Origin: Bacilli bacterium
Lineage (GTDB): Bacteria > Bacillota_I > Bacilli_A > RF39 > UBA660
Assembly: GCA_022795155.1 (NCBI GenBank)
Contig: JAAWGF010000002.1
Coordinates: 17,096-81,095, forward strand
Reading direction: 5' to 3'
Length of the DNA: 64,000 bases
Positions 1,001-43,546 of the stretch are shown in pieces. Position 1 is the stretch's first letter, and the number at the start of each line of letters is the position of its first letter. The notes beneath the pieces were generated by a model. It searched no databases. It saw only the letters and a list, made by a program, of their open reading frames with translations, and was not told where the DNA came from. Both the position numbers and the translations under genes were made by a program.

Positions 1001-1039
1001 AAAAGAAAAGCATACTATTCATCGTTAAATGAATAGTAT
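1001..1039 (-). terminator. intrinsic terminator after the coaB operon
   Basis: 11-bp stem (1012-1022 / 1029-1039) with a 6-nt loop. On the minus strand it is followed by the U-rich tract GCUUUUCUUUU. It sits just downstream of the stop at 1070. Confidence 0.6.
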
Positions 1040-1069
1040 ACTATAAATTATTATTATTTAAAAGTTTTT

Positions 1070-2684: not shown

Positions 2685-2710
2685 TTTTTTACCTCCTTCT
2701 AATTGTATTT

Positions 2711-2751
2711 TATAACAAATAATAATATAATTAAAATACATATTTGTTATA
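2711..2751. promoter_or_regulatory. inverted repeat, candidate LysR-type operator in a divergent promoter region
   Basis: Perfect 11-bp arms TATAACAAATA (2711-2721) and TATTTGTTATA (2741-2751) are separated by 19 bp. The repeat lies between the nitrilase-like gene start (2684) and the LysR start (2771). Confidence 0.35.
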
Positions 2752-2770
2752 CTATATATAAGGAGGACTT

Positions 2771-3673
2771 ATGAATATAGATTTAAATCTTTATTATATT
2801 TTTCATACTGTAGCTAAATTGGGAAGTATAACTAAAGCTTCCGAAGAACTATTTGTATCGCAACCTGCTATCACGCAATCAATTAAAACATTAGAAAGTC
2901 TAATAGGAGCAACTCTATTTATTAGGACTAAAAAAGGGGTAATTTTAACTGAAGAAGCTAAAGTTTTATATAATTATATAGATGAGGGTCTTACATTTAT
3001 AAAAAATGGTGAAGCTAAATTTCAAGAACTAATGAATCTACAAGATGGAACATTAAAAATAGGTGCTAGTACTACAGTAACTCAACATGTTCTTTTGCCA
3101 TATCTTGAAAAATTTACTAATCTTTATCCCAATATAAATGTTTCTATTACCAACCATTTGACATCTGAATTAATAACGCTCCTTAGAAATGGCACAGTTG
3201 ATATATTAATTCTTAATCTCCCAACTGAAGAATATTTTGATTTAGAAATAAATCCATTTATGGAAGTACATGATATCTTTGCCGTTAGTAACAAACTAAA
3301 AAAATTATTAGAGAAAGAACATAGCTTAACCGATCTTTTAAAAAATGACTTTATTTTTCAAAAAAGTCCCTCTAATACGCGCACTTTTTTAAATAACTTT
3401 CTATCTTCTAAAAATATGGTTATCGAACCTAAATATGAAGTAGTTAGTTTTAATTTAGTTAAAGATATGACCAAAATAGGTCTTGGGATTGGATATCTTA
3501 CAAAAGAATTTATTGAATCAGAAATAAAAAATAAAGAATTATTTCCAATTAAAATAAAACCTAGTATTCCACCACGACAAATAGGTTTAGTAACTATTAA
3601 AAAAAATATTCCTTCTTTCGCTGCTCGTTCATTTATTAATCTAATTTTAAACAAAAAAAAAGATATTCACTAA
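2771..3673 (+). CDS. LysR-family transcriptional regulator
   Basis: N-terminal winged HTH (GSITKASEELFVSQPAITQSIKTLE), ~300 aa, with a substrate-binding-domain-like C-terminus. AGGAGG lies 4 nt upstream of the ATG. It is divergent from the nitrilase-coaB operon. Confidence 0.85.
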   Translation: MNIDLNLYYIFHTVAKLGSITKASEELFVSQPAITQSIKTLESLIGATLFIRTKKGVILTEEAKVLYNYIDEGLTFIKNGEAKFQELMNLQDGTLKIGASTTVTQHVLLPYLEKFTNLYPNINVSITNHLTSELITLLRNGTVDILILNLPTEEYFDLEINPFMEVHDIFAVSNKLKKLLEKEHSLTDLLKNDFIFQKSPSNTRTFLNNFLSSKNMVIEPKYEVVSFNLVKDMTKIGLGIGYLTKEFIESEIKNKELFPIKIKPSIPPRQIGLVTIKKNIPSFAARSFINLILNKKKDIH

Positions 3674-3737
3674 TATAATCTTTAGTAAATATCTCATATT
3701 AAAAAATATATAAGTCAAAAACTAGCAATTAGTATTT

Positions 3738-5168
3738 TTACATTTTTTTAGAATCTTGTAAGTTATTATTTTTTATTTTGTCAATAAAAGCAAGTTTTTC
3801 TTCAATTTTGGTGTCTTTACTCTCAATTAGATAATTTGAAACCTTCTGTAATAGTTGCTCAAATAATTCAGTAAATGTTAATTTTTGATTTAATAATACT
3901 TGCATTTTTTTATTTAAAGACATTCCAAATTGATAATATTGATATTGTTGATAATCTACATTACCCAAGATTTCTTTTGGTGATTTTTCCTTTTTGTTTT
4001 GGCATTTTTTAATTTTTTCTTTACTGTTTTTTATATTTTCAATTATTTGGTCCTTAAATCTTTCTAAAGTGAATAACTCTAATTCTGATAAGAGTTCATT
4101 TTGTAAATTTTTAGATTGACTTGCGATATATTCTTTTTCTTCATTAATAATTTCTAAATATTTTTTCTTCAATAAATCAGGATTTTGTAATAGTATCATA
4201 TTTTCCTTTAAAAATTCATTGTTCCGATTTTGACTTTCTAAAATATTTTTTCTATCTGATTCAAGTTCAAGGAAAACTATTTCATCCCAAGCACATAGTC
4301 TTTTTGAACATCGATTCAAGCTTTTATCTACAGATTTACTAAATATTTCCTCTGTATTTTCAGAATTACAGGAAGCTACGATAATAGTTACTAGTGAAAA
4401 TATATCAGAAAAATGATTTCTACTTTCAGAAGTATTAGAAATATATTTAAAAATTTCTGGAAAAATATAGGGATGATTATATTGATCAGCTTTATTCCAA
4501 GCATTACACATCTCTTTTGGAATAACCATCATTAATAATGTATATGTAAGATAATAAATATGATATAAATTTTCTGGACATATAAGTAAATCATTTTCGG
4601 AGTAATTTATAAGATTAGAATGATACTCTGCTTCACCTTCGTTGAGCATATTTAACATGTCTTTTGGAAAAGGAAATTCGCTTGGATAAGCAAATACTTG
4701 ATTTACATGTTGCAATTCATGCTGCAATGTATACTCTAATTCTTTTCTATTAACTAATTCAATTTTTGCTCCACCCCGATTTACTCCATAAGCAGACAAA
4801 TAATAATCGCCATTTGGATCTAAAAAATAATTTTCTCCTTTTTTTGATAATCTATTCTCTACTTTATCGATAATATTCGCGGGGATTTTTTTTATGTGAC
4901 TATATAATATACATTTAGGGTTATTTATTATCTCTAAAAAATCAATTATTTTTAAACTTTCTGTTTGTCTTAATTTTTCAAAAGAATTTTTTATATAATC
5001 ATCTAAACTGAAATTGTCCAAAATATTGGAGTTGGCATCATAGAAATTGAAAAAATAAAGTAACCACCCAATTAAAGTATTGGCAGTTATATCATCATTC
5101 CAATTTTTTTCTTGCATAATTTGGTTTAATTTTTTAAGATATATTAATAAATTAGTATAATTCGGCAT
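3738..5168 (-). CDS. putative zinc metallopeptidase (HEXXH) with a long C-terminal coiled-coil-like region
   Basis: Motif LQHELQHV is followed ~25 aa later by NEGEAEYH (gluzincin-like third ligand). The C-terminal ~180 aa is K/E/N/Q-rich and heptad-like. No family was assigned. Confidence 0.45.
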   Translation of the reverse strand: MPNYTNLLIYLKKLNQIMQEKNWNDDITANTLIGWLLYFFNFYDANSNILDNFSLDDYIKNSFEKLRQTESLKIIDFLEIINNPKCILYSHIKKIPANIIDKVENRLSKKGENYFLDPNGDYYLSAYGVNRGGAKIELVNRKELEYTLQHELQHVNQVFAYPSEFPFPKDMLNMLNEGEAEYHSNLINYSENDLLICPENLYHIYYLTYTLLMMVIPKEMCNAWNKADQYNHPYIFPEIFKYISNTSESRNHFSDIFSLVTIIVASCNSENTEEIFSKSVDKSLNRCSKRLCAWDEIVFLELESDRKNILESQNRNNEFLKENMILLQNPDLLKKKYLEIINEEKEYIASQSKNLQNELLSELELFTLERFKDQIIENIKNSKEKIKKCQNKKEKSPKEILGNVDYQQYQYYQFGMSLNKKMQVLLNQKLTFTELFEQLLQKVSNYLIESKDTKIEEKLAFIDKIKNNNLQDSKKM

Positions 5169-5358
5169 TTATATCATCTCGCATTGCTTTATACAATTCA
5201 AAATCAATATTTTTGACTTGTTCCAATTTTTCAATTTTTTCTTCTTTAGAATTAAAGATATTTTTATTTAAAAGTATATTCCATCTATCAATAATTTCAT
5301 AAACTAAATCTTCATTTTGACAAATTTCAAGATATTTTAATTTACAATTCTCTGGCAT
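5152..5358 (-). CDS. small hypothetical protein (68 aa), 17-nt overlap with the downstream HEXXH gene
   Basis: The ORF is immediately upstream of 3738-5168, on the same strand and overlapping it, which suggests translational coupling. Confidence 0.4.
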   Translation of the reverse strand: MPENCKLKYLEICQNEDLVYEIIDRWNILLNKNIFNSKEEKIEKLEQVKNIDFELYKAMRDDINAELY

Positions 5359-5528
5359 ATTTTTACACCCCTTATAAATTAATTATACCATATAAAATAG
5401 GATAATATCATATTTAAATTTATTAATTTATGAATTACAAAAATAAAGGTTATGATAACATACTTATTAAAAAAAGCAATTATTTTACACACTATCAATT
5501 AATTCTTTTATTTAGGCGTTGTTTTTAT

Positions 5529-5556
5529 AAAAAAAGAATTTCCTATTAAGAAATTC
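5529..5556 (-). terminator. intrinsic terminator after the PH-domain gene
   Basis: 7-bp stem GAATTTC / GAAATTC (5536-5542, 5550-5556), followed on the minus strand by U7 (plus-strand A-run 5529-5535). Confidence 0.5.
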
Positions 5557-5579
5557 ATAATTTTACAAATATATTTGAA

Positions 5580-6053
5580 TTAATTTTCTTCTAATTTAAA
5601 GTGAATATCGTCATTTATCAATTTTTTTATATCTTGTTTAGTTGGTTCTTGATTACTAATTATACGATTAATACACGTATAAAGAATTCTAAGACGAACT
5701 TTATCATCTGGAGCGACATTTATAAATTTTAATTTAATAGGATATCCACAATCTAATAATAAATTTAGTAAAGCACTACTCTTTTCAAATATTATTGAAA
5801 TTGTTGAAATTGATTTATAAGGGATTGTATACATTTGTTTTTTTATTTTAAATTTACTAACACTATCAAACAGTATAATTTTATTATCTGTAAAAACGCC
5901 ATGATCTCTAGACGTTTTATATGCTACTAATATTTTTTCATCATCTAAAACATAATGCCTAATATAACCTGGTAATTCTGATTTATTAATGACATTAGAA
6001 AAATTGAATTTTTTTGTTATCTCTTTATATTTTACATAAAACACTTCTACCAC
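5580..6053 (-). CDS. bacterial PH-domain protein (YokE/DUF1696-like)
   Basis: The pattern ...ILVAYKTSRDHGVFTDNKIILFD...KKQMYTIPYKSISTISI... is typical of bacterial PH domains. The start is uncertain: GTG 6053 sits inside an AGGTGG, so GTG 6044 is a plausible alternative. Confidence 0.55.
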   Translation of the reverse strand: MVEVFYVKYKEITKKFNFSNVINKSELPGYIRHYVLDDEKILVAYKTSRDHGVFTDNKIILFDSVSKFKIKKQMYTIPYKSISTISIIFEKSSALLNLLLDCGYPIKLKFINVAPDDKVRLRILYTCINRIISNQEPTKQDIKKLINDDIHFKLEEN

Positions 6054-6131
6054 CTAAATTAATTATAACATAATTAATTAAATTATAAAATTAAATGTAT
6101 TTTTATTTGTTATTTTCTATGATAAAATTTA

Positions 6132-6160
6132 TTGACATTATAATATTTCTGTGTTATTGT
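6132..6160 (+). promoter_or_regulatory. sigma-A-like promoter for the 6203 gene
   Basis: TTGACA (6132-6137), 17-bp spacer, then an extended -10 TGtTATTGT (6152-6160). Confidence 0.4.
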
Positions 6161-6202
6161 AATTTAATATTTTTTCATATATTTATAAGGAGGGAAATCT
6201 TT

Positions 6203-7450
6203 ATGAAAGAAATTAATTATATGAATAAAACTTTTTTAAAAAAATTAGCAAAAAAAACACTTAAAATTACTAAGAATACATTAATAGGTATTGCCACTAT
6301 ATCTACAGTTGGAGTGGGTGGATATTCGGCATATATTCATAATTCTTTAAGTAAAATTGAAATAGATCAAAGTAAAGTTAAAAAGATTGTTGAAACATAT
6401 GATGATGAGATTACATTTGTTTGCTTAAATGACTCACAAGCTATCAATATAAATCCCTGTTTTTGGGAACCAAATGCAGTAGAATATATTGAAAATGCTT
6501 TTATAAAACAAGGCGCTAATGTTAAATTTATTAATTCCTCATCTTTGAAGTTTAATAAAACTAATCATATTGATAAGATTTTAGATAATAATTTAAGTTA
6601 TGAAGAAATTAAAAACTTAAATTTATTAGGAGCTAAAGCAGCTTTTAGTAAAATTTCTTCTGACTTTCATATTCCAATTGATTGTGGATTTATAGGCTCC
6701 GTTTTTGTTGATCCTGTTAAAGATGGTGACGAATCACTTTATATTTCTTCAACAATACAAAATAGTAATAACCCAATTATTTTATATACTTGTGGCGCTA
6801 ACGATTTAATGCGAGCTCTTAATAATAATCCTTTATCAATAAAGAAATATGATAAAGATGGAAATATTGCTGATAATTATTTATATAGCGTTTATAAAGC
6901 AAATCAAAATTCAACTTTAGATAATATTATAAATGATGTAGAAAATAATTTTAAAAACATTTATGCTTTAAATCCTTCTTGTCAAATATATGCTTTATCT
7001 CTTTATCTTCCTAACAATGTTTCTGGTGAAGACATGCAACCATTTGTAAAAATAATAAACGAGTACAATAAAAGATTTAAAGAGTTATGTGATGATTACA
7101 ATGTTCATTATATTTCAACTTCTGATTTAGCTGAGGTATATATGGAAACAGCTAATTTTCATATTAATGAGCAAGGGCATAAAATTTTAGCTAATCTTTT
7201 AATTAATGAAATTGCTAAAAATAACTTGAGCCTAATAGAAAACAATTGTCAAAAGAATTCAATTATTCAAAGTAAAGGATTAAGTGGGTTTGCATGCAGT
7301 TTAAACGATGAAATTGATTTGGTCCCATGTGAAGATTATAACGAATTAAATGCTGAATATTTATATGAAGTTCAAAAAACTATTAAAGGCGAATTTGCAG
7401 AAGAAAGAGATTTATCTAATAAAGCAAAAGAATTGACAAAAAAATATTAA
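6203..7450 (+). CDS. membrane-anchored SGNH/GDSL-like hydrolase family protein
   Basis: Start moved to ATG 6203 (AAGGAGGG upstream); the track ORF from 6095 has no SD. It has an N-terminal TM segment (LIGIATISTVGVGGYSAYI). SGNH-like blocks are present: LNDSQ, YTCGANDL, FHINEQGH. Confidence 0.5.
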   Translation: MKEINYMNKTFLKKLAKKTLKITKNTLIGIATISTVGVGGYSAYIHNSLSKIEIDQSKVKKIVETYDDEITFVCLNDSQAININPCFWEPNAVEYIENAFIKQGANVKFINSSSLKFNKTNHIDKILDNNLSYEEIKNLNLLGAKAAFSKISSDFHIPIDCGFIGSVFVDPVKDGDESLYISSTIQNSNNPIILYTCGANDLMRALNNNPLSIKKYDKDGNIADNYLYSVYKANQNSTLDNIINDVENNFKNIYALNPSCQIYALSLYLPNNVSGEDMQPFVKIINEYNKRFKELCDDYNVHYISTSDLAEVYMETANFHINEQGHKILANLLINEIAKNNLSLIENNCQKNSIIQSKGLSGFACSLNDEIDLVPCEDYNELNAEYLYEVQKTIKGEFAEERDLSNKAKELTKKY

Positions 7451-7457
7451 TACTATC

Positions 7458-7494
7458 AAAAAATATAGACTTTTTGTTTAAGCCTATATTTTTT
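7458..7494. terminator. bidirectional hairpin between convergent genes
   Basis: 11-bp arms AAAAAATATAG (7458-7468) / CTATATTTTTT (7484-7494), with A/T runs on both sides. Confidence 0.45.
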
Positions 7495-7846
7495 ATCTAT
7501 TATTATCAATAAATGCATCCAATTCGCCATTTTTAAAATAAATTGTTTCCTCATATTTTTCTTGATTTCTCACAGGTAAGAAAATAGATAATTGGACTAA
7601 ATTATTTCCACATTTTGAGCATCGATATTTCTTTATTCCACAAGCATATATTCCTATTGGTATATCTTTTTTACTAGAAACTTTTACTAAATTTTTTTTA
7701 TAGTATTCAGCGTTTTCATGTGAAACATAATGACCTACCGACATTGGTAGCATAAATAATTGCTTGTAATTTTCGGTCATCGCTATTTGACAAGAACTGC
7801 ACCAATCACTATGAAAAAGTGCCTTTATTTTTTTTATTATCCCCAT
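7493..7846 (-). CDS. zinc-ribbon-like small protein (117 aa)
   Basis: Two CxxC pairs are present (CSSC near the N-terminus, CSKC near residue 76). Its ATG directly abuts the upstream stop (TAAATG at 7844-7849). Confidence 0.45.
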   Translation of the reverse strand: MGIIKKIKALFHSDWCSSCQIAMTENYKQLFMLPMSVGHYVSHENAEYYKKNLVKVSSKKDIPIGIYACGIKKYRCSKCGNNLVQLSIFLPVRNQEKYEETIYFKNGELDAFIDNNR

Positions 7847-8431
7847 TTACTTATCGTTTTGGCGAGCGGTTTCTAATACATTAACCATTTTATCAGCTTT
7901 AGAAATACCTGTTAAAATATAATCACTATTCATTTTAAAACGTTGATTAGATTTAAATGTATAAACGCGTACTTTTACATCATCGATTGTAAATAAGAAA
8001 CTTACGCAACTACTTCCTTCCATAAAGCCAACTCCGCCTTTTCCATCATCAACCCAAGCTTTACCAATTCTTTTAGCAGAAATAATATAACTCTCGGTTG
8101 GATTCCAAAAAAATTGAAGTCCGATTTTTCCAGCATTTACATCAACAATTACTTCAGCTCCATCGCCATAAAATGTGTTATTTTGAACTAATCCTTGTTC
8201 TTTAAACATATTTTCTAATCTCTTTTTATTTTTTTTAAAGATAATTTTTCCTCCAAAAATCCACCAAATGATTGATATAAAAGGTGAACCTAATAATAGA
8301 ATAACACACATAGTACCTTCTCTGAAGAAATTATAGCTTATTAAATAACAAATTGTAATCAAAATTACAGGTATAAATATATACCCTAATAAATATAATA
8401 AATTAATTTTTTTGATTTTCTTATTTTCCAT
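7847..8431 (-). CDS. two-TM membrane protein with a soluble C-terminal domain (194 aa)
   Basis: Start moved to ATG 8431 (AAAGGAG 7 nt upstream). Two hydrophobic helices are followed by a beta-rich-looking ~120-aa domain. No family was assigned. Confidence 0.45.
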   Translation of the reverse strand: MENKKIKKINLLYLLGYIFIPVILITICYLISYNFFREGTMCVILLLGSPFISIIWWIFGGKIIFKKNKKRLENMFKEQGLVQNNTFYGDGAEVIVDVNAGKIGLQFFWNPTESYIISAKRIGKAWVDDGKGGVGFMEGSSCVSFLFTIDDVKVRVYTFKSNQRFKMNSDYILTGISKADKMVNVLETARQNDK

Positions 8432-8457
8432 TCTAACACTCCTTTTAAATTTAAAAA

Positions 8458-9123
8458 TTAATCCCATTCATTTTTTGTTTTTTCTTTAGGATGAATAAAA
8501 TAAGGAAATATACCCATTTTTGAACCTAGCATATGGAGAAGAATAAAACAAATAATAATACTTATTATTCTCGTTATAATAATTGGTATTTCAACATAAT
8601 CATCTAGATTTTGTTTTCCCCCACGACCTAACATGTCAATATAGAAATCATATCTACTTAATTTTTTAGAATGTTCTATTTGTTCTAAAAAATAAGTGTC
8701 TTGGTTTAAATCATCATATACTATTTTACCGACAGGCATTATAGAATCACCATCATAAATACTTTCACCTGTTTTTTGAACAGCTTCCATATTAATTAAG
8801 GCAGCAATCCTTTCTCCTGATGGAAGCGTTAAAGCATACATATAATAGTTGTTGTGATATCCAGCACCCTCATTCATATATTTAATACCTTTTGTTACAA
8901 CTGTAAATTTTTCGTTATTTAGTAAATCTTCTATATTTTGGGCTCTTAAAATATCTTCACTAGCTATACCACCTATATCATTTTCTTCAACCTCATGTTG
9001 TTTTACATATGAATCATATTTCTTAGTATATATTTCTTGAACAATCTTGGTTGGGATAGAACTCAATAAAAAACTTATAAATAGACAAAGCCATATATCA
9101 AATCGTAATCTACGATAAAACAC
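8458..9123 (-). CDS. membrane protein with N- and C-terminal TM helices flanking a ~150-aa domain (221 aa)
   Basis: GTG start with GAGGAG 8 nt upstream. Hydrophobic segments lie at both ends. It sits directly downstream of mscL with no terminator between them. Confidence 0.45.
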   Translation of the reverse strand: MFYRRLRFDIWLCLFISFLLSSIPTKIVQEIYTKKYDSYVKQHEVEENDIGGIASEDILRAQNIEDLLNNEKFTVVTKGIKYMNEGAGYHNNYYMYALTLPSGERIAALINMEAVQKTGESIYDGDSIMPVGKIVYDDLNQDTYFLEQIEHSKKLSRYDFYIDMLGRGGKQNLDDYVEIPIIITRIISIIICFILLHMLGSKMGIFPYFIHPKEKTKNEWD

Positions 9124-9175
9124 AATTAATTCTCCTCATATATAAAATATTTTAATAATAATACAATTATGCATC

Positions 9176-9592
9176 TTATTTATTTTTTAATAAATCACGA
9201 ATTTCTTCCAATAATAACACTTCATCACTTTTTTTGCATGGTTCTTCCAACTTTTCTTCTTTATGTTTAAATTTTTCAAATATTTTAATCATCAAAAATA
9301 TACAGAAAGCAATAATTAAGAAATCAACTATTGATTGAATAAATGACCCATACGCAATATTTGCATCATTTATTTTGATACTCAAGCTATTGAAATTTAA
9401 TCCGCCTAATATTGTCCCAATTAGTGGCATAAGTATATCATTTACAAGGCTTGTAACTATTTTCCCAAAAGCGCCTCCTATAATAACTCCAACTGCCATA
9501 TCAACAACATTTCCTCTAGAAATAAATTTTTTAAATTCATTAACTCCTTTAGTAAGATTTTTGGTTATTTTTATATTCTTTTTCTTTGACAT
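9176..9592 (-). CDS. mscL: large-conductance mechanosensitive channel
   Basis: FKKFISRGNVVDMAVGVIIGGAFGKIVTSLVNDILMPLIG is the hallmark MscL N-terminus/TM1. Typical ~138-aa size. Confidence 0.9.
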   Translation of the reverse strand: MSKKKNIKITKNLTKGVNEFKKFISRGNVVDMAVGVIIGGAFGKIVTSLVNDILMPLIGTILGGLNFNSLSIKINDANIAYGSFIQSIVDFLIIAFCIFLMIKIFEKFKHKEEKLEEPCKKSDEVLLLEEIRDLLKNK

Positions 9593-9625
9593 TATGATTA
9601 CTCCTTTTCAATTAGTTATACAAAA

Positions 9626-9651
9626 GGAAATATACCTTTTTGCATATTTCC
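9626..9651 (-). terminator. weak hairpin after noc/parB
   Basis: GGAAATAT / ATATTTCC 8-bp stem with a 10-nt loop, followed on the minus strand by UUUUGU. Confidence 0.35.
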
Positions 9652-9659
9652 ATTTAATT

Positions 9660-11480
9660 TTATTTTTCATCGTTCTTTTGAATCTTAAATATTACTTGAT
9701 ACATATCTTCAAAATCATATTCTTCACATTCAATTGCGAATCCATATTTTTCAATAGTGTCAGAGCAATTTCTAATAGTATTAATTACTGTTCGTAAATC
9801 AACTTTAGATTCAATAACGCTTTCAACGTTTCTCTCTTCCATAATCTCTTCTTTCCTAACTGATTCTGCAAGAATATTATCTGCTGGATAATTAATAACT
9901 TTTGGTGTATCTTCTATTTCTTCAATATTATCTTGGAAATCATAAGTATCATTTAATGTATCAATATCACCTTTATCTATTATTGGATTTGATACAGGCT
10001 CTTCTTTTATTTCTTCTAATTTACTATTATTAAATGAAAATTCATTTTGATTATTTGTTTGTTCTGTAATATTGTTTTCTATTGATTCTGTCTCTAAAAA
10101 TTGATTTAATGAATTATTACTTTCAACAAGAGGGGTAAAATTAAATGTTTCTTCGTCAGAAATTTCTTTTTTATTATCATCTGTTATATCTTCGTCATCT
10201 TCTGGTGTTAACATGGTAAAGAATTTATTTTGTTGAATGGGCTCTTCTTCTACATTATTAGTATCAAATTGATTAAAATCTTTAATACTGTTATTTTCCA
10301 AACCATTTTCAGACATCAATAGATTATCAATATCTGCTAAAGGTCTTTCAACGTAAATATCTTGAGCATTTTTTTCAATATCATCAACATCTACAAATCC
10401 TGGATTGATATTATTAATATTTGGCAAATTATCAATCATATCATTAATTTCTTTTAATTCCTTTTCATTGTTTGAAATTGGACTTGCTTGAATAGGTTCC
10501 TCTTCTATTTCCTCAACAATAGGACTAGTTGGTATATCAAAGTTTCCAAAACTTTTCATTTCTGAATTGTCATCACTACTCTCAAAATTTTCTGCTTCTA
10601 AATTATCTATGATTGGTACTTGAAGTGGTACCTCACTAATTTCTTCAACTGGTACTACTTTTTGTTCCGAAATTGGTGAATCTATATTCAAAAAATCTAA
10701 TAATTCTTCATCTTTATTATTATTCTCAAATGAATTAATAACTTGATCATTTGGATTTATAAACTCGATAGCACTAGAACTTTGAATAGCTGGTTCTTCA
10801 ACTTGAACACTGTTATTCATAAAAATACTAGGGATTTCTGTTTCAAATTTAGTTTCTGTTAATCCAGTAATTTTTCCTGCTAAAATATCATTAATTAAAT
10901 CATCTGTCTTTTTAACAGTTAATCTGTCTTTTATTATCTTTTCTAAGATATCTTTTTGTTTTTGTTTACTCTCAATTTTTAATAAAGATCTAGCATGACG
11001 TTCAGATATTTTTTCATCTAATAATGCTTCTTGTACATCATCATCTAAATTTAATAGTCTTAATTTATTACTAATAGTAGATTGTGTTTTACCTAATTTT
11101 TCAGCTAATTGCTCTTGAGTTAAATAGCCCATGTCCAATATTTTTCGATAAGAAACAGCTTCTTCAATTGGTGTCAAATCTTGTCTTTGAACATTTTCAA
11201 TTAATGCCACTTCAGCACTATCTTTATCATTTAAATCAGAGATTATAGCTGGAATTGTCCTTTTTCCTGCTAAAAGACTTGCTTTATATCTTCTTTCTCC
11301 AGCAATTATCTCATATTTATCACCTAATCTCCTAACAAGAATCGGTTGAATAACACCATGCTCTTTTATTGATTCTGCTAATTCTGTAATTGCTTGTTCA
11401 TGAAATTTAAATCTTGGTTGAAATCTATTTGGTAAAACATCATCTAATTCTAAATCTACTACTATTTTTTCGTGGTTCAT
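9660..11480 (-). CDS. noc: ParB-family protein, Noc-like, with a ~350-aa acidic insertion between the DNA-binding and C-terminal domains
   Basis: - ParB N-domain motifs PNRFQPR and IIAGERRYKAS are present.
- The HTH LTQEQLAEKLGKTQSTISNKLRLLNL...ISERHARSLL and the C-terminus RTVINTIRN...EEYDFEDMYQVIFKIQK resemble B. subtilis Noc as I recall it.
- Start set to ATG 11480 (GGAAGGAGA 6 nt upstream); the track start TTG 11546 has no SD.
- It lies next to rsmG, as noc does in Bacillus. Confidence 0.85.
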   Translation of the reverse strand: MNHEKIVVDLELDDVLPNRFQPRFKFHEQAITELAESIKEHGVIQPILVRRLGDKYEIIAGERRYKASLLAGKRTIPAIISDLNDKDSAEVALIENVQRQDLTPIEEAVSYRKILDMGYLTQEQLAEKLGKTQSTISNKLRLLNLDDDVQEALLDEKISERHARSLLKIESKQKQKDILEKIIKDRLTVKKTDDLINDILAGKITGLTETKFETEIPSIFMNNSVQVEEPAIQSSSAIEFINPNDQVINSFENNNKDEELLDFLNIDSPISEQKVVPVEEISEVPLQVPIIDNLEAENFESSDDNSEMKSFGNFDIPTSPIVEEIEEEPIQASPISNNEKELKEINDMIDNLPNINNINPGFVDVDDIEKNAQDIYVERPLADIDNLLMSENGLENNSIKDFNQFDTNNVEEEPIQQNKFFTMLTPEDDEDITDDNKKEISDEETFNFTPLVESNNSLNQFLETESIENNITEQTNNQNEFSFNNSKLEEIKEEPVSNPIIDKGDIDTLNDTYDFQDNIEEIEDTPKVINYPADNILAESVRKEEIMEERNVESVIESKVDLRTVINTIRNCSDTIEKYGFAIECEEYDFEDMYQVIFKIQKNDEK

Positions 11481-11913: not shown

Positions 11914-12618
11914 TTAAAGAGGTTTCTTTTTTATTTGTGAATATGGGCGAGGATATTTTTTTGAGGTTGCTTTTAATTTTTTAAATTTTAGTATTGTTCT
12001 CGTACTATTTTCAGATGGCAATAAAAATTCTAGTTTATCAACCAACTCGCAATTTAATTCCTTTTTTGCATAATCAATTTCCAATATTTCCCGGGAAATA
12101 TTAGCTTTTAAAGGTATAAAATATTTCCCAGATTTGACTAATGGTAGACAATATTCTAATAAAATATTTAAAGAAGCAACAGCTCTAGCAGTGACAACAT
12201 CATACTTTTCTCTTGATTTTCTACCAAAATCTTCAATTCTAGTATGTAAAGTATCAATGCCAACTAGATTTAACTCTTTTATAACAGCATTTAAAAAATC
12301 AATTCTTTTATTTAATGAATCCACTAAAGTAACATTAATTTTGGGAAATAATATTTTGATAACTAAACCAGGGAAACCAGCACCTGCCCCAACATCACAT
12401 AAATTTTCAACTGTATTTAAATCAATGATTTTATTTATTGTTAAACTATCATAAAAATGTTTTAAATAAACTTGTTCTTTTTCTGTAATCCCTGTTAAAT
12501 TGATTTTTTCATTATATTCTATTAACAATTCATAATACTTTTCCAATTGTTTTAATTGACTTACGTTTATATTAATATTTATTTTTTTTAAATTTTCAAT
12601 AAAATCATTTATGTTCAT
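11914..12618 (-). CDS. rsmG: 16S rRNA (guanine527-N7)-methyltransferase
   Basis: SAM motif DVGAGAGFPGLVIKI, ~234 aa. It lies immediately downstream of mnmG with a 14-nt overlap. Confidence 0.9.
   Translation of the reverse strand: MNINDFIENLKKINININVSQLKQLEKYYELLIEYNEKINLTGITEKEQVYLKHFYDSLTINKIIDLNTVENLCDVGAGAGFPGLVIKILFPKINVTLVDSLNKRIDFLNAVIKELNLVGIDTLHTRIEDFGRKSREKYDVVTARAVASLNILLEYCLPLVKSGKYFIPLKANISREILEIDYAKKELNCELVDKLEFLLPSENSTRTILKFKKLKATSKKYPRPYSQIKKKPL
12086..12099. promoter_or_regulatory. Noc-binding-site (NBS) consensus palindrome
   Basis: Exact ATTTCCCGGGAAAT, embedded in the 20-bp perfect palindrome AATATTTCCCGGGAAATATT (12083-12102) inside rsmG. Confidence 0.6.
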
Positions 12619-21809: not shown

Positions 21810-21901
21810 GACAAAAAATGATTAAATTCGACATAAAATTTTGATATAAAAAAGGAAATTTGATATTTTTTATTGAAAAATATCTATAGGAGGTGATAAT
21901 T

Positions 21902-22351
21902 TTGTTTGATACTTATGAAATTACAAAAAATACATTAGCAATTATTCCAATTGATGCGAAGAGGAGTGAGGTGATTGAAGATAATGACACGTTTATAATT
22001 AACAAGTGTTCCACAAAAATTGTTGATGATAGCTGCAAATTTTTTGGAAGTTCATTGGATGGTCGTCAGGAAGGAACAAAAAATTTAATAGGTGTTAATT
22101 ATAAAGCTCCAATTATAGTAGAAGAAACAAATGATGTAATTTTTTTTCCAACAAATTCTCCAAGAATAGTTGACTGTACATGGATATCATTAAATAATTT
22201 AGAAAATTATAAAAAAAATAATAATAAAACACAAGTTTTATTTAAAAATGGAAAAACAATTGATATAAGTATTTCTTATGGCTCATTAGAAAATCAAGTT
22301 TTACGATCAACAAGATTAGAATCAATTTTAAGAAAAAGAAAAAATATATAA
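21902..22351 (+). CDS. comK: competence transcription factor ComK family
   Basis: It aligns by eye with B. subtilis ComK blocks: DDSCKFFGSSLDGRQEGT, KAPIIV, IFFPTNSP, CTWIS, FKNGKTIDISISYGSLENQVLRS. The likely TTG start at 21902 is 8 nt after AGGAGG. Confidence 0.8.
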   Translation: MFDTYEITKNTLAIIPIDAKRSEVIEDNDTFIINKCSTKIVDDSCKFFGSSLDGRQEGTKNLIGVNYKAPIIVEETNDVIFFPTNSPRIVDCTWISLNNLENYKKNNNKTQVLFKNGKTIDISISYGSLENQVLRSTRLESILRKRKNI

Positions 22352-25553: not shown

Positions 25554-27998
25554 ATGGATAGAGTAGAACATAATAATATAGATAAAGAAGTCAAAAAATC
25601 TTTTATGGAATATGCCATGAGTGTCATAGTTGCTCGTGCTTTGCCTGATGTTCGAGATGGTTTGAAACCTGTTCATAGACGAATTGTTTATTCAATGTTA
25701 GAATCTGGATATACACCAGATAAGCAACATCGTAAATGCGCAAGAATTGTCGGAGATGTAATGGGAAAATATCATCCACATGGTGATTCTAGTATTTATG
25801 AAGCTATGGTTAGAATGGCTCAAGATTTTAGTTATAGATATATGTTAGTGGATGGACATGGGAATTTTGGCAATATGGATGGTGATGGCGCAGCTGCAAT
25901 GCGTTATACGGAAGCAAGAATGTCTAAAATCAGTATGGAATTAGTCCGCGATATTAATAAAGATACAGTTGATTTTGACCCTAACTTTGATGAAACAGAA
26001 AAAGAACCACACGTTTTACCTAGTAGATTTCCTAATATTTTAGTTAATGGAACAATGGGAATTGCGGTAGGTATGGCTACTAATATACCTCCGCATAATC
26101 TAGGTGAGGTAATTGATGGTTGTATCGCTTATATCGATAATAAAGAGATAACATCACTGGAATTAATGGAATATATTAAAGGTCCAGATTTTTCAACTGG
26201 CGGAATTATTTTAGGAAATAGTGGTATAAGAAAAGCTTATGAAACAGGTCGCGGTACAATAACAATTAGATGTCGAGCTGAAATTGATGAAGAACATGGT
26301 AAGTCTAGAATTGTTATTACTGAAGTTCCTTATGGTCTTAATACTTTAGAATTAAAAAATAGAATAGCTGAATTAGTACGTGATAAAGTTTTAGATGGAA
26401 TAGCTGATTATCATGAAGAAACAGGGGTTTCTCAAGGTGTTAAAATAGTTGTAACTTTAAAAAGAGAAGCGAATCCAAATGTTGTCTTAAATAATTTATA
26501 TAAACATACGCAATTACAAACGACATTTGGAATTAATTTCTTAATGTTAGACCAAGGCGTACCAAAGACGCTTAATATGCGAGAGATTATTGAAAAGTAT
26601 ATTGAATTCCAAAAAGAAGTTATAATAAGGAGAACAAAATTTGATTTAAAGAAGGCTGAGGCCCGTGCACATATTTTAAACGGATATAAAATTGCTTTAG
26701 ATCATTTAGATGATGTTATTAAAATAATTCGTGAGAGTAAGAGTGATGTGGACGCTAAAGAAAAATTAATTGCAAGTTATCAATTTACAGAAATTCAAGC
26801 TGACGCGATTCTTGAATTAAAATTAAGAAGGTTAACAGCACTAGAAAGGGATAAAATTGATAATGAATTAAAAGAGATATTGGCTTTAATTGAAGAATAT
26901 AATTCAATATTAGGTAGCGAAGAGCGAATATATGGTGTTATCAAACAAGAATTGCTTGAGATAAAACAAAAATATAGTGATGAAAGAAGAACTAACATAG
27001 ACATGTCAGCTATTGATTATATTGAAGATGAATCATTGATTCCAATTGAGGATATTATTGTTACTTTAACTAATAAAGGATATATTAAGAGAATAAATAG
27101 TGAGACATATCGTTCACAAAATCGTGGTGGTGTAGGAATAAAAGGTATGGCAACAAATGAAGAAGATTTTGTTGAGCAAATGATTTCTTTAACAACACAT
27201 GATTATTTAATGTTCTTTACAAATAAAGGGAAAGTATATCGTATGAAAGGATATGAAATCCCATTATTTAGTCGTCAATCAAAAGGATTACCTATTATCA
27301 ATTTATTACAAATAGAGAAAGAAGAATATGTAAAAGCGATATTGAAAGTATCAAAAGACGATAGTGCTAAATATTTGATATTCTGCACTTTAAATGGAAT
27401 AGTGAAGAAAACAGAATTATCTGAATTTGAAAATATTAGAAATTCTGGTAAAATAGCTATTAGTTTAAGAGATAATGATCAATTATTAGCGGTTAAATTG
27501 GCGGATTCTGAAAACGAAATATTAATTGCTTCTTCTAATGGTAGAATGATTAGATTTAATGAAAATGAATTACGTTCTATGGGTAGAACTGCTTCAGGGG
27601 TTAAAGGTATCGATGTTAATAATGGACTTTGTGTTGGATGTGAAGTGGCACATATTGGTGAGGAAGTATTAGTAGTAACAGAAAATGGTTATGGAAAGCG
27701 AACTAATATTGAAGAGTACCGTATGACACATCGTGGTAGCAAAGGTGTAAAAGCATTAAATATTACAGAAAAAAATGGAAATATAGTTGCATTTAAAGCG
27801 GTAAAAGAAGATAAGGATTTAATGATTATAACTAATAATGGTGTAATTATTCGATTACCTTTAGAACAAATTTCAAAATCTGGCCGTGTAGCCCAAGGTG
27901 TAAAATTAATTAATTTAAAAGATGAACAAAAAGTATCTAATATAGCTATTGTTGAAAAAGAAGAAAATATTATTGAAGAACAATCTAATGAAGAATAA
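25554..27998 (+). CDS. gyrA: DNA gyrase subunit A
   Basis: [24 protein letters not shown], the [17 protein letters not shown], the active-site region [10 protein letters not shown], and C-terminal beta-pinwheel repeats. Confidence 0.97.
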
Positions 27999-28014
27999 TG
28001 TTTCACGTGAAACA
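27999..28014. promoter_or_regulatory. parS site 1 (also a likely gyrA terminator hairpin)
   Basis: Exact TGTTTCACGTGAAACA within the 32-bp perfect palindrome 27991-28022. It overlaps the gyrA stop (27996-27998) and is followed by TTTTTAT. Confidence 0.8.
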
Positions 28015-28230
28015 TTATTCTTTTTATAATAAAACATGCAAATAAAACATAAAATATTTTTAATAAAATTAAACAGTTCACAATTAAATTTCTAATATTC
28101 AACATGAAACATCAATAAAAATATAAGTTGTATTTTTGGATTATTAATATAGATAACTATAATAGTATTTATTGGAAATGAAATATTATTTTTATATTAC
28201 CCTATTTTAAAAACTACAATTCAATAACAA

Positions 28231-28246
28231 TGTTTCACGTGAAACA
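28231..28246. promoter_or_regulatory. parS site 2
   Basis: Exact TGTTTCACGTGAAACA within the 32-bp perfect palindrome 28223-28254. It lies in non-coding DNA. Confidence 0.8.
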
Positions 28247-28394
28247 TTGTTATTTTTAACCAATAAGTTTATTTCAAAAATATTAGTATATATATTATTT
28301 ATTTTTTTATAAAACTATATATAATGATATTTGAATAATTGAAATTTTAGTTAATATATATTGCTTTTTTAGTATATTTATTTCTAAATTACTA

Positions 28395-28410
28395 TGTTTC
28401 ACGTGAAACA
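28395..28410. promoter_or_regulatory. parS site 3
   Basis: Exact TGTTTCACGTGAAACA (18-bp palindrome 28394-28411) in non-coding DNA. Confidence 0.8.
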
Positions 28411-28443
28411 TTAAACTAAAATAATATAAAAATGTTATTTATA

Positions 28444-28472
28444 TTGATTTATAAGAATAAATATTATATATT
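28444..28472 (+). promoter_or_regulatory. sigma-A-like promoter of the SRP RNA
   Basis: TTGATT (28444-28449), 17-bp spacer, TATATT (28467-28472). The first G of the predicted RNA helix follows 7 nt later, at 28479. Confidence 0.5.
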
Positions 28473-28478
28473 ATTAAA

Positions 28479-28552
28479 GGTACAACATTTATAAACGAAT
28501 CAGGTCAGAATAGGAATATAGCAGCCTTAAGTTTCCCTAAGTGTGTGTACCT
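28479..28552 (+). ncRNA. ffs: small (4.5S-type) signal recognition particle RNA
   Basis: - CAGGTCAGAATAGGAATATAGCAGCC matches the universal domain IV core CAGGUCAG-N4-GGAA-N4-GCAGCC with identical spacing and a GGAA tetraloop.
- The ends pair (GGTACA 28479-28484 with TGTACC 28546-28551) and are followed by T7.
- It neighbours tadA/dnaX, like B. subtilis scr.
- The ends are approximate. Confidence 0.78.
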
Positions 28553-28568
28553 TTTTTTAGGTGATAAT

Positions 28569-29024
28569 ATGAATGATGATATGATATATATGGATTTAGC
28601 ATTAAAAGAAGCAAAGAAATCATTGAAATTCGATGATGTTCCAATTGGTGCAATTGTGGTGAAAAACAATAGAATCATCTCAAAAGCACATAATATGAAG
28701 GAAAGATTATCAATATCTACAAGGCATGCTGAAATGATAGCTATTGAAAAAGCATGTAAAAAACTAAATAGTTGGTATCTTAGTGATTGTACATTATATG
28801 TGACTGTTGAACCATGTTTGATGTGTTGCGGTGCAATTATACAATCTAGAATAAAAAGAGTTGTATATGCTACTAAAAATGAAAAATTTGGGTATGTTGA
28901 AAGTATAGAAAAAATATTTCAAAATAAAAAAAACAATCATTCTGTTTTAGTAGAGAAAGGTGTATATGAAAAAGAAGCAAAAGAATTGATTCAAAAATTT
29001 TTTCAAAAAAAGCGTAATAATTAG
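28569..29024 (+). CDS. tadA: tRNA-specific adenosine deaminase
   Basis: Deaminase zinc motifs RHAEMIAI and EPCLMCCGAI. Start set to ATG 28569 (AGGTGA upstream); the track start at 28545 would lie inside the SRP RNA. Confidence 0.9.
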   Translation: MNDDMIYMDLALKEAKKSLKFDDVPIGAIVVKNNRIISKAHNMKERLSISTRHAEMIAIEKACKKLNSWYLSDCTLYVTVEPCLMCCGAIIQSRIKRVVYATKNEKFGYVESIEKIFQNKKNNHSVLVEKGVYEKEAKELIQKFFQKKRNN

Positions 29025-34313: not shown

Positions 34314-35153
34314 ATGTCACAAAGAAGTTATAATGGAATGGCAACATTATATTTAATTCCAACGCCTATTGGAAATATGGATGATATTACAATAAGAGCC
34401 ATAAATATAATTAATTCAGTTGAAGTAATTTTTGCTGAAGATACAAGAGTTACATCGTTATTACTTAAACATTTAAATATAAAAAAGAAACTAATTTCAA
34501 GTTTTAATTATAATGAACAATTAAATAAAGAAAAATTGTTGGAATATTTAAAAGGCGGCTTTAATGTTGGATTAGTTAGTGATAGAGGGACGCCGATTAT
34601 TAGTGATCCTGGATATGAACTAGCTAAGTGTGCAATTGAAAATAATTATAATGTTGTTGGTTTGCCTGGACCAACTGCGCTAATACCAGCTTTAATCACA
34701 TCAGGAATTAGACCATTGCCATTTTTATTTTATGGATTTTTGAATAACAAATCTACAAAAAGAAAGCAAGAATTAGAGATATTAAAGAGTGAAAAAGCTA
34801 CATTAATTTTTTATGAGGCTCCTCATCGAATTATTGATACGTTAGATGAAATGAAGAATATTTTTGGTAATCGAAATATTGCTATTTCCCGGGAAATAAG
34901 CAAAAAATTTGAGGAGGTATATAGGGGTACACTTGATACAATAACTTGTCAGTTAGTTGATATAAAAGGTGAATTTGTTATAGTGGTTGAGGGAAATAAA
35001 CAAGAGAATACCTACAATAATTTGACAATTACTGAACACGTCAATCTTTATATAAGAGAAGGTAAAGATTCTAAAGAGGCTATTAAAATAGTGGCAAAAG
35101 AACGTAATCTAAAAAAACAAGATGTATATAATGAGTACCATGGAATAAAGTAG
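34314..35153 (+). CDS. rsmI: 16S rRNA (cytidine1402-2'-O)-methyltransferase
   Basis: LYLIPTPIGN, FAEDTR, DRGTPIISDPG and YEAPHR are RsmI/tetrapyrrole-methylase-fold motifs. Start set to ATG 34314 (GAGGTG upstream). Confidence 0.9.
   Translation: MSQRSYNGMATLYLIPTPIGNMDDITIRAINIINSVEVIFAEDTRVTSLLLKHLNIKKKLISSFNYNEQLNKEKLLEYLKGGFNVGLVSDRGTPIISDPGYELAKCAIENNYNVVGLPGPTALIPALITSGIRPLPFLFYGFLNNKSTKRKQELEILKSEKATLIFYEAPHRIIDTLDEMKNIFGNRNIAISREISKKFEEVYRGTLDTITCQLVDIKGEFVIVVEGNKQENTYNNLTITEHVNLYIREGKDSKEAIKIVAKERNLKKQDVYNEYHGIK
34884..34897. promoter_or_regulatory. Noc-binding-site (NBS) consensus palindrome
   Basis: Exact ATTTCCCGGGAAAT within the 16-bp perfect palindrome TATTTCCCGGGAAATA (34883-34898), inside rsmI. 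Confidence 0.6.
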
Positions 35154-41718: not shown

Positions 41719-42597
41719 TTATATATTTTTGAAATTATTTATGGCATTAGTTAAAATTTTTGTTTTATCTTTGTCTAATTCGATTAGTGGTTCTCTTATA
41801 TATCCATTGGCCATACCTAATATTTCCATAGCTTTCTTAACTGGGATTGGATTTATATCACAAAATAAAGCATTACATAATTCTATCATTTTTAGTTGCA
41901 TTTTTGTTGCTTTTTCAGCATTTCCATTTAGATAGTCCATAACCATGTTATGCATTTCTTTTGGGAAAATGTTTGCCACAACAGAGATAACACCGATTCC
42001 ACCTAATGATAAAATAGGGACTGTTTGGTCATCATTTCCTGAATATGCATCTAGTGCATTACTAGCTAAAATTTTTGCTATAGCACTTATATTTCCCGAT
42101 GCCTCTTTAATAGCGACAATATTACTATTGTTTTTCGCAATATCAATCATTGTTTCAAGAGTAATATTCATACCAGTTCTCGGCGGAACGTTATACATGA
42201 TAATTGGAATATCAACACTCTCGGCAATCTTTCCATAGTATCTTTTTAAACCATCTTGATTGGTTTTATTATAATATGGTGTTATACATAAAAGCCCATC
42301 AGCTCCGACTTTTTCAGCCTCTTTAGATAACATAACAGCTGTTTTAGTGTCATTAGAACCTGTACCAGCAATGACAGGAATTCTCCCATTAGCATATTTA
42401 ACACAAGCTTCAATACATTTTATATGTTCTTCATCACTTAATGTTGAAGATTCCCCTGTTGTTCCACAGATAATAATACTATCAGTTCCATTTTCAATTT
42501 GAAATTCAACTAAATTTTTAAGAGTTTCAAAATCAATTTCCCCGTTTTCTTTAAATGGTGTAATTAGGGCAACACCTGACCCTTTAAATATAGACAT
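41719..42597 (-). CDS. dapA: 4-hydroxy-tetrahydrodipicolinate synthase
   Basis: GVALITPF, GTTGES, PYYNK, and the Schiff-base lysine context VAIKEASG. Confidence 0.95.
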   Translation of the reverse strand: MSIFKGSGVALITPFKENGEIDFETLKNLVEFQIENGTDSIIICGTTGESSTLSDEEHIKCIEACVKYANGRIPVIAGTGSNDTKTAVMLSKEAEKVGADGLLCITPYYNKTNQDGLKRYYGKIAESVDIPIIMYNVPPRTGMNITLETMIDIAKNNSNIVAIKEASGNISAIAKILASNALDAYSGNDDQTVPILSLGGIGVISVVANIFPKEMHNMVMDYLNGNAEKATKMQLKMIELCNALFCDINPIPVKKAMEILGMANGYIREPLIELDKDKTKILTNAINNFKNI

Positions 42598-42641: not shown

Positions 42642-42670
42642 ATAAAAAAGTTATCTTAAAAAATATTAAG

Positions 42671-42828
42671 TAGCTCTCCATCTTTCGATGACAGTTATAT
42701 AGTTATTCACTATATACCCAGTAATTTAATAGCTTGAACTATTAAATCCTTCGGCAATTTTCCCTTTCTTATACAGTCATCTAATTCAAGTTATCATGTA
42801 TAATACTCTTAAAAATTGCAACCTCTAC
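42671..42828 (-). promoter_or_regulatory. lysine riboswitch (L-box) aptamer
   Basis: The minus strand reads GTAGAGGTTGCAA...GAAAGGGAAAATTGCCGAAGGA...ACTGGGTA...AACTGTCATCGAAAGATGGAGAGCTA. This matches the conserved L-box segments (AGAGG..GC, TGCCGAAG, CTGG, TGTCA, GGAGAGCT). It lies in the dapA leader. Confidence 0.85.
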
Positions 42829-43021
42829 ATAAAATATAAGTATGAATTTATATTATCAAATAAAATTAATGTTGTCAATATCAATTTTTTTAATGCTCAT
42901 TATATTATATTTAAAATTAACTTTTTTTTTCCAATTTTTGTTTTTATAATTGCTATTTAGTAAAAAATTATGATTCATGTATAAAAAAATAATTTTTGTT
43001 CAATATTAAATAGGTGATAAT

Positions 43022-43546
43022 ATGAAAAAGACAATAATGTTGATAGGTTTAATTATAGGAATATATATTTTTATTGGGTATAAATTTAGCGATATAGAAA
43101 TACCTAATGAGGCTTTGAGAATACGAATTTTAGCTAATAGCAATTCAGATTATGATCAACAGATTAAAAATAGTGTTAAAACTGAAATCCAAGATTATGT
43201 TTACGATTTACTAAAAGATACAACTGATATTGAGGAAGCGAGAAAAATTATAAATTCAAAATTAGATAATATTTCTAGTTTAACTAATATGTTTTTAAAA
43301 AAACAAAATTATAATTTACCTTATTCTGTTAATTTTGGATATAATTATTTTCCTAAGAAAGTATATAAAGGGATAACTTATGATGCTGGCTATTATGAAT
43401 CTCTTTTAATTACACTAGGTAGTGGCAATGGTGATAATTGGTGGTGTGTTTTATTTCCTCCCTTATGTTTATTAGAAGCTGAAGAATCTGTAGATGTTGA
43501 GTATACAACGTTAGTTAGTGAATTACTTAAAAGATATAAAAAATAG
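43022..43546 (+). CDS. spoIIR: stage II sporulation protein R
   Basis: N-terminal signal/TM segment, LRIRILANSNSDYDQQIKN, and the C-terminal GDNWWCVLFPPLCL. Both are SpoIIR hallmarks. Confidence 0.8.
   Translation: MKKTIMLIGLIIGIYIFIGYKFSDIEIPNEALRIRILANSNSDYDQQIKNSVKTEIQDYVYDLLKDTTDIEEARKIINSKLDNISSLTNMFLKKQNYNLPYSVNFGYNYFPKKVYKGITYDAGYYESLLITLGSGNGDNWWCVLFPPLCLLEAEESVDVEYTTLVSELLKRYKK

Follow-up and report, generated by a model that had tools for sequence, protein, structure and literature searches.

Three parS sites in a single gap downstream of gyrA: a compact, probable centromere near the replication origin of a Bacilli chromosome

The parS sites of Bacillus subtilis, about ten in number, are spread over the origin-proximal fifth of the chromosome and lie mostly within genes, and gyrA is followed there by an rRNA operon. 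A different layout was found in the DNA analyzed here, a stretch of 64,000 nucleotides from an uncultured Bacilli bacterium of the gut (GTDB lineage Bacillota_I, Bacilli_A, RF39, UBA660; contig JAAWGF010000002.1 of assembly GCA_022795155.1, positions 17,096 to 81,095), which is referred to below as the window. All of the parS sites seen, three exact copies of the 16-bp palindrome TGTTTCACGTGAAACA, lie in one noncoding gap between gyrA and ffs, the gene for the small signal recognition particle (SRP) RNA, and the soj-parB gene pair does not stand beside noc, the gene for the ParB paralogue Noc, in the lineage to which the window belongs. In other respects the Spo0J-parS system of B. subtilis is closely matched: the 16-bp consensus TGTTNCACGTGAAACA, including its T/C variant at position 5, and the origin-proximal position are shared, as is a separate Noc paralogue encoded next to rsmG with Noc-binding sites (NBS) of its own, and the soj-spo0J pair has its counterpart in related species.

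Clusters of parS near the replication origin (oriC) have been described in Pseudomonas aeruginosa, which has four sites (PMC4368675), and in Caulobacter (PMC5815017); the number of sites per species ranges from 1 to 20-23, and their clustering has been recognized but not explained (PMC7333895). The present locus is like these clusters in that several identical 16-bp palindromes, in a copy number that varies by species, stand close together near oriC and would act as one centromere. The clusters of P. aeruginosa and Caulobacter, however, extend over several kilobases to tens of kilobases and include genic sites, whereas the three sites described here span 412 bp within one intergenic gap. The arrays of related species further differ from those clusters in being short tandem repeats, with periods of 36 to 117 bp, in a fixed syntenic slot. 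Such arrays recall the sopC centromere of the F plasmid, in which 12 direct 43-bp repeats each contain a 16-bp inverted repeat bound by SopB (PMC3177203), as both consist of head-to-tail repeats of tens of base pairs with one 16-bp palindrome each for a ParB-family protein. Unlike sopC, the locus stands on a chromosome, has the universal chromosomal parS sequence and lies apart from its par genes, and the three copies in the window form no recognizable tandem repeat, the DNA between them being unrelated. The Noc-NBS system (PMC7383237, PMC8429893) is also represented in the window, both by a protein with the Noc signature residues and by perfect NBS palindromes, which differ from parS at two positions per half-site.

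We interpret the three palindromes as the parS sites of a chromosomal ParABS system, which form, about 9 kb from oriC, a compact centromere at a single locus, and assign this reading, with its full mechanism and a ParB encoded outside the window, a probability of roughly 0.85. As such, it is an ordinary ParABS centromere, conventional in its mechanism, in a compact single-locus layout that is unusual for Firmicutes. The sites (Table 1) fit TGTTNCACGTGAAACA exactly and are separated by 232 and 164 bp, measured from start to start or from center to center. In the 64-kb window there are no other matches to TGTTTCACGTGAAACA with up to two mismatches, and those with three, at 7712 and 57068, are at chance level; in total, five matches with up to three mismatches compare with a mean of 0.32 in dinucleotide-preserving shuffles, none of 100 of which reached five. 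The copy number, positions and spacing, as well as the fit to the Firmicute parS consensus, are thus as given in a preliminary description of this DNA, and the search at zero to two mismatches that it had proposed returned, over the window, only the three copies after gyrA. Outside the three full sites, the half-site TGTTTCAC occurs in the window at a frequency near chance, with no enrichment. The degenerate TATTCAACATGAAACA is possibly a decayed fourth site and is indistinguishable from a chance match. The placement of site 1 directly after the gyrA stop codon recurs in a sister metagenome-assembled genome (MAG; locus L001), site 1 is kept in strains of the same species (L201-L203), and all three sites are kept among the strains of this species. 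One of its other assemblies (L202, CAPUOP010000001.1) shows a single gap opening relative to the window near the 3' end of gyrA, at about window position 27388 and, judging from the shift in coordinates, of about 19 bp; gyrA is called there as two pieces, probably through an assembly error.

Since the GC-skew minimum falls at about 18 to 19 kb and dnaA lies at 19182, oriC is placed at about 18.7 to 20.6 kb, and the parS cluster is thereby origin proximal, at the distance of about 9 kb that had been estimated beforehand. A scan for DnaA boxes (TTATCCACA, up to one mismatch) stayed at chance level and gave no position for oriC. The gene order is that of a Firmicute-type origin region, running on the minus strand from rnpA to mnmE, mnmG, rsmG and then the ParB-family gene, and on the plus strand through dnaA, dnaN, (comK), recF, gyrB and gyrA.

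The comparison with related species carries most of the argument. The sample comprised gyrA with 10 kb on either side from 80 species representatives and, with the window, amounted to 81 loci and 1.48 Mb, in which parS was counted at up to one mismatch. These loci hold 334 parS sites, 227 of them perfect, and every one lies 0 to 2.3 kb downstream of gyrA. Where the sequence extends as far as tadA, in 61 loci, 269 sites fall within 44.9 kb of gap, and the remaining 1.22 Mb contains 10 sites, all of them in the next gap, between tadA and dnaX. A second sample, 1.13 Mb around the noc and parB genes of the same clade, contained no parS site. The motif is therefore confined to the locus after gyrA in 2.6 Mb of origin-proximal clade sequence, which speaks against the dispersed repeat that had been named as the outcome fatal to the preliminary description. 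At least one site is present in 73 of 80 species, and in four of the seven species without a site the available sequence ends less than 500 bp after gyrA. The comparison of the gyrA-tadA interval in relatives that the same description had called for thus shows the cluster to be a trait of the clade and not unique to this genome.

Within this slot, the number of parS copies ranges from 1 to 12, and the homologous gap, 149 to 2278 bp long in the 61 loci, lengthens with it (Spearman 0.69, p = 7e-10); Rfam searches of six loci placed the end of the array at the SRP RNA gene. Tandem-repeat arrays are common, with periods of 36 to 39, 53, 62, 84 and 117 bp (e.g., 37 to 39 bp in L007 and L024 and 84 bp in L056). 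Short-read contigs of the window's own species (Logan contigs, L203-L208) begin exactly at the palindromes, corresponding to window positions 27993, 28225 and 28373, and the contigs of L001, L002, L007, L024 and L071 end at palindromes or inside arrays. Because identical palindromes of 32 to 36 bp break short-read assemblies at this locus, the array sizes in MAGs are lower bounds. The flanking DNA contrasts with the sites themselves: between the window and L002, whose DnaA proteins are 90% identical, the gap is essentially unalignable, yet each has three perfect sites, which are spaced differently in the two. Across the clade, the consensus is a symmetric palindrome of 18 to 22 bp, (C/T)AA-TGTTTCACGTGAAACA-TT(G/A), the 16-mer core of which is invariant in the clade logo; the only common core variant, TGTTCCACGTGAAACA, has a T-to-C change at position 5, which is the N position of the Firmicute consensus. 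Such conservation goes beyond neutral expectation. Since the core is conserved in about 70 species, while the surrounding gap DNA has turned over completely and the sites are confined to this locus, the palindromes after gyrA are, judging from sequence, strongly selected as sites of protein binding at one dedicated locus.

The proposed mechanism follows that of known ParABS systems and can be outlined as follows: (i) a canonical Spo0J-type ParB, with R173 and G201 in its recognition helices, would be encoded outside the window; (ii) its dimers would nucleate at each palindrome of 16 to 22 bp and, with cytidine triphosphate, close into sliding clamps that spread into the flanking DNA; (iii) the resulting partition complex would be acted on by Soj/ParA and would load SMC; (iv) several sites within one AT-rich, untranscribed gap would provide a high local loading rate, and hairpin termination would keep RNA polymerase from running through the loading platform; (v) the number of sites in the clade would be tuned by tandem duplication and loss within the gap; and (vi) Noc would read two NBS sites and not parS. 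Binding and spreading of ParB, SMC loading and termination at these particular sites are predictions of this model.

The relatives provide a suitable ParB. A second ParB paralogue of 291 to 301 amino acids is found there, always directly after a ParA/Soj gene. In the more distant half of the clade, soj and then a gene for a ParB of 296 to 301 amino acids with the R..G residues come after noc, and in the half to which the window belongs according to the DnaA tree, soj-parB has been relocated and no longer adjoins noc. It is found after trxB (L103 and L161), after ftsH (L174 and L175) or after bipA-ddl (L209) and in every case DUF951, ychF, rpsF, ssb and rpsR come next. The second type is represented by more than 200 distinct ParB sequences, and all of those checked have R..G. 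Canonical ParB and the array after gyrA co-occur in single genomes in two species: MAG RGIG6413 has soj-parB (residues R/I/R/G) on JAFXHG010000023.1 and gyrA with five perfect parS sites and one NBS on JAFXHG010000038.1, and in UMGS1110 a locus with noc and parB (L138) overlaps the one with three parS sites (L031) at 99.6% identity.

The ParB-family protein encoded in the window itself had been put forward as a candidate parS binder, and this part of the preliminary description did not hold, as the protein is an orthologue of Noc. It contains the Pfam domains ParB_N (4.6e-31) and HTH_ParB (1.7e-33), with the GERRxR motif in the form GERRYKAS, its best matches in the PDB are to Noc (2e-61, versus 1e-49 to 1e-51 for Spo0J/ParB), and it scores 295 bits with TIGR04285 versus 178 bits with the generic ParB model; the score is below the curated NCBIfam cutoff of 315 bits, the match being split in two by a linker of about 330 amino acids. 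Alignment to Noc structures gives the specificity residues Q173, K179, N184 and R201. In the work of Jalal et al., Q173 reads adenine 1 of the NBS and R201 reads cytosine 6, both requiring a permissive K at position 179 or 184, and parS-specific variants have R173 invariably, while dual binders mostly have T or S at position 201 (PMC7383237). Across the clade, Noc orthologues from 88 loci have Q-K-x-R and the second paralogues all have R-x-x-G/S/A, with no intermediates. The window protein is therefore, from its Q173/K179/R201 signature, predicted to be specific for NBS and not to be the reader of the parS cluster. Two perfect 16-bp NBS (ATTTCCCGGGAAAT) are present in the window (Table 1), a number that none of 100 shuffles gave. 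An NBS lies at the equivalent position of rsmG in the related loci L095, L103, L108 and L161-170, and the one at about codon 195 of rsmI is kept in perfect form in 15 of 45 related loci.

The window Noc is long. Gene callers start it at 11480, giving 606 amino acids, or 628 if it begins at 11546, compared with the usual length of about 280, and the excess is a low-complexity, acidic linker between the DNA-binding domain and the Noc-like C-terminal domain; linkers of 100 to 330 amino acids occur in the Noc proteins of relatives. This linker sets it apart from described Noc proteins, as does its N terminus, in which no amphipathic helix is evident, the called start (MNHEK) lying about 10 residues before the conserved core. 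The in-frame stretch upstream of the start is broken by stop codons in L103. Three unannotated open reading frames (ORFs) beside noc, at 7493-9123, were considered as an alternative reader of the sites and rejected, as they resemble small membrane or unknown proteins and have no Pfam or NCBIfam match. A further peculiarity of the region is that noc and uvrB, neighbors in relatives, are separated here by about 13 kb of inserted genes with poor annotation (window positions 1-9600 and L199 positions 1-10000), namely mscL, three unknown genes and genes for GDSL lipase, bPH, LysR, DFP-like, Fic and MarR proteins.

The observations that weigh against our interpretation concern the window's own species. 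For this species, which is also represented by assemblies GCA_948714555.1 and GCA_022800535.1, 88 kb around the origin could be covered, from -14.3 to +73.7 kb in window coordinates (L199 on the left and L193 and L194, 9.7 kb, on the right), and neither Soj nor a second ParB paralogue nor any additional parS site was found in it. The slots that hold soj-parB in relatives, after trxB and after ddl, are occupied by other genes; after trxB, the block from soj-parB to rpsR is replaced by cofD-whiA-gdpP-rplI-dnaC, as it is in several gut relatives. A tblastn search with the Noc N-terminal domain recovered Noc alone in the window and nothing in the 80 gyrA loci. In addition, further parS sites could be present elsewhere in the genome, beyond the 88 kb reached. 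These findings could be explained by loss of the canonical ParB, with the cluster being read by a dual-specificity paralogue of the Noc type or by an unrelated factor and the gap serving as a landing pad for Noc or another protein. In keeping with this, the window Noc has N and not K at position 184, dual-specificity variants of the ParB scaffold exist experimentally (PMC7383237), and NBS and parS share a repeat unit in sister lineages. We nevertheless consider the explanation improbable, for several reasons: (i) the combination of Q173 and R201 is that of an NBS-specific protein and lacks both the R173 of parS binders and the T or S at position 201 of most dual binders; (ii) in every relative where both proteins are visible, a Noc with Q-K-x-R coexists with a separate ParB with R-x-x-G; (iii) the NBS in the window are perfect, as would be expected for a dedicated Noc; and (iv) because the position of soj-parB varies in the clade (including, in the distant half, directly after noc), its absence from 88 kb of a genome of about 1.3 to 1.5 Mb, a size taken from two closed relatives, is weak evidence. 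A cognate ParB is presumably encoded in this genome, too, since the perfect sites are maintained and the gene is present throughout the clade.

The second alternative accepts the palindromes as true ParB sites and sees their main role in SMC loading and origin organization, or in regulation of ffs/tadA or gyrBA, and not in ParA-driven segregation. The window contains no ParA, site 3 ends about 30 bp before promoter-like hexamers for the SRP RNA, in L040 the sites lie on both sides of ffs and abut the ribosome-binding site of tadA, and ParB-only systems are known from S. pneumoniae and S. aureus (PMC7333895). On the other hand, a ParA/Soj gene immediately precedes every ParB gene seen in the relatives, and promoter-like matches in the gap do not exceed chance, with 9 found and 11.3 expected. 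A main role outside segregation is thus judged to be about as improbable as loss of ParB, and it does not exclude the centromere that we favor, as SMC loading belongs to the canonical system. The gap has a GC content well below the approximately 25 to 30% of its flanks, with no credible ORF and no Rfam match besides the SRP RNA, and the idea of a small RNA or an ORF between sites 1 and 2 was rejected. It had been described as an AT-rich interval of about 550 bp free of ORFs, and both properties were found as described; the size was approximately right, the noncoding gap being 472 bp long and the distance from gyrA to tadA 570 bp.

Sites 1 and 2 lie within perfect palindromes of 32 bp, each followed by a T-run, as the preliminary description had it. 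The RNA of palindrome 1 would fold into a 15-bp hairpin of -16.4 kcal/mol (z = -7.25) followed by UUUUUAUAAU, and that of palindrome 2 into a 14-bp hairpin of -15.0 kcal/mol (z = -5.6) followed by UUUUU; two mirrored positions distinguish the arms of the one from those of the other. At site 3, the palindrome extends by only 1 bp on each side and there is no comparable hairpin. The TAA stop codon of gyrA (27996-27998) falls within palindrome 1, so the overlap with the stop that was ascribed to copy 1 applies to the 32-bp palindrome and not to the 16-mer, which starts at the next base. That this copy doubles as the gyrA terminator is plausible in light of its hairpin and U-run, and in the clade terminator-like sites are more frequent among the first sites after gyrA (9 of 74) than among internal ones (7 of 260); in about half of the species, no more than 20 bp separate the first site from the gyrA stop. 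Against a terminator role, a consensus terminator scan called neither palindrome, both stems being AT rich with two G-C pairs each (palindrome 1 was missed because its stem has fewer than three), and by a strict count 83 of 99 extended palindromes in the clade lack a T-run. The hairpins of sites 1 and 2, with their U-tracts, may plausibly end gyrBA transcription as well, in a second role that would be opportunistic, but because most extended palindromes of the clade have no T-run, termination is at best a side role. In the clade, 30% of parS sites have at least 4 additional palindromic bp, versus about 1% expected from base composition, and those without a terminator-like appearance may reflect wider symmetric contacts or "perfecting" by template switching. 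The third alternative, that the palindromes are primarily RNA or DNA hairpins (intrinsic terminators or a repeat resembling repetitive extragenic palindromes) whose identity to parS is incidental, could draw on these extended stems and U-runs and on the mirrored arm differences, which preserve pairing, and is the least likely of all, because the invariant part in about 70 species is the core of 16 to 18 bp, with flanks and stem length varying, an extended stem and a T-run are both absent from site 3 and from most clade sites, there is one locus per sampled genome region, and compensatory changes in the core, which a hairpin would tolerate, were not seen.

The sister half of the clade adds a second element to this locus. 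In L064 (12452-13053), a unit of 117 bp is repeated 5.2 times, and in L056 (12671-13158), a unit of 84 bp is repeated 5.8 times, with one parS and one NBS in each unit. Overall, there are 38 NBS in 44.9 kb of gaps and 45 in 1.22 Mb elsewhere, i.e., they are about 23-fold denser in the gaps. The gap in the window contains no NBS. These arrays suggest that ParB and Noc complexes are co-assembled at one origin-proximal platform in the sister lineages. A broader proposal, which we put forward tentatively and hold to be possible rather than probable, is that the gyrA-ffs gap is the only centromere in the clade, with a regional array, built of repeats, that expands and contracts through tandem duplication between 1 and at least 12 parS sites, and that it serves in the sister lineages as a composite landing pad for ParB and the membrane-tethering Noc, the window representing an NBS-free version. 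In a literature search that was incomplete, we found no description of parS arrays in these uncultured Bacilli, of composite parS/NBS repeats or of ParB-Noc coupling.

By GyrA, the relatives are MAGs of uncultured "Bacilli" or "Tenericutes" that come from gut, rumen and digester samples and have 23 to 33% GC. The genome is small, at 25% GC, and the window includes sporulation genes, encoding SpoIIR (43022-43546), SpoIID (54625-55545) and an M23 peptidase (55598-56233), while L193 and L194 have calls for spoIIID, cotJB and cotJC in the parts that overlap or flank the window. A ComK-family ORF (21893-22351, plus strand; Pfam, 3e-44) is placed between dnaN and recF within the conserved block from dnaA to gyrA. 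The sporulation genes and comK fit the small-genome orders of uncultured Bacilli discussed previously (PMC10868615). A lysine riboswitch is found at 42663-42835 on the minus strand (Rfam, 106 bits), upstream of dapA (41719-42597).

Table 1. Features of the parS locus and of the Noc-NBS system in the window (coordinates are window positions)
Feature	Position	Strand	Description	Match or role
gyrA	25554-27998	+	Pfam DNA_topoisoIV and GyrA C-terminal repeats	Upstream border of gap
Noncoding gap, gyrA to SRP RNA (ffs)	27999-28470		472 bp, 13-17% GC	Carries all three parS sites
Palindrome 1	27991-28022	+	Perfect, 32 bp around site 1, followed by TTTTTA	Predicted hairpin, likely gyrB-gyrA intrinsic terminator
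parS site 1	27999-28014		16-bp perfect palindrome; begins at the base after the gyrA stop	Exact match
Degenerate parS-like TATTCAACATGAAACA	28096-28111		4 mismatches	80% identity to reference copy
Palindrome 2	28223-28254	+	Perfect, 32 bp around site 2, followed by TTTTTA	
parS site 2	28231-28246		16-bp perfect palindrome; CAA...TTG flanks as in the clade 22-bp consensus	Exact match
parS site 3	28395-28410		16-bp perfect palindrome, 18 bp with flanking A/T; ends about 60 bp before the SRP RNA gene	Exact match
Small SRP RNA (ffs)	28471-28566	+	Rfam RF00169, 58.5 bits	Downstream border of gap
tadA	28569-29024	+	Deaminase Pfam match; start ATG 28569 most likely	
Noc-type ParB paralogue	9660-11480 (ORF to 11546)	-	Next to rsmG	Predicted NBS binder
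NBS 1 TATTTCCCGGGAAATA	12085-12100		Inside rsmG, just upstream of noc	Perfect
NBS 2 TATTTCCCGGGAAATA	34883-34898		Inside rsmI, at about codon 195	Perfect

To conclude, this work locates the probable centromere and SMC-loading site of this genome and corrects a likely misannotation of the nearby ParB-family gene, which is Noc. The notion of a compact, centromere-like cluster in a dedicated gap, with which the preliminary description had started, is supported at its core by the clade comparison, but the cluster is less exceptional than it had been rated, since origin-proximal clusters are known outside Firmicutes. The composite parS and NBS repeats of the sister lineages hint that ParB and Noc are physically coupled at the origin. 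The clade as a whole offers a natural series, in which an identical parS sequence is present at one fixed noncoding locus in 1 to at least 12 copies, with arrays that arose by recent tandem duplication, and this series bears on a question listed as open in a review of the field, namely the reasons for the clustering of parS and the determinants of site number (PMC7333895).

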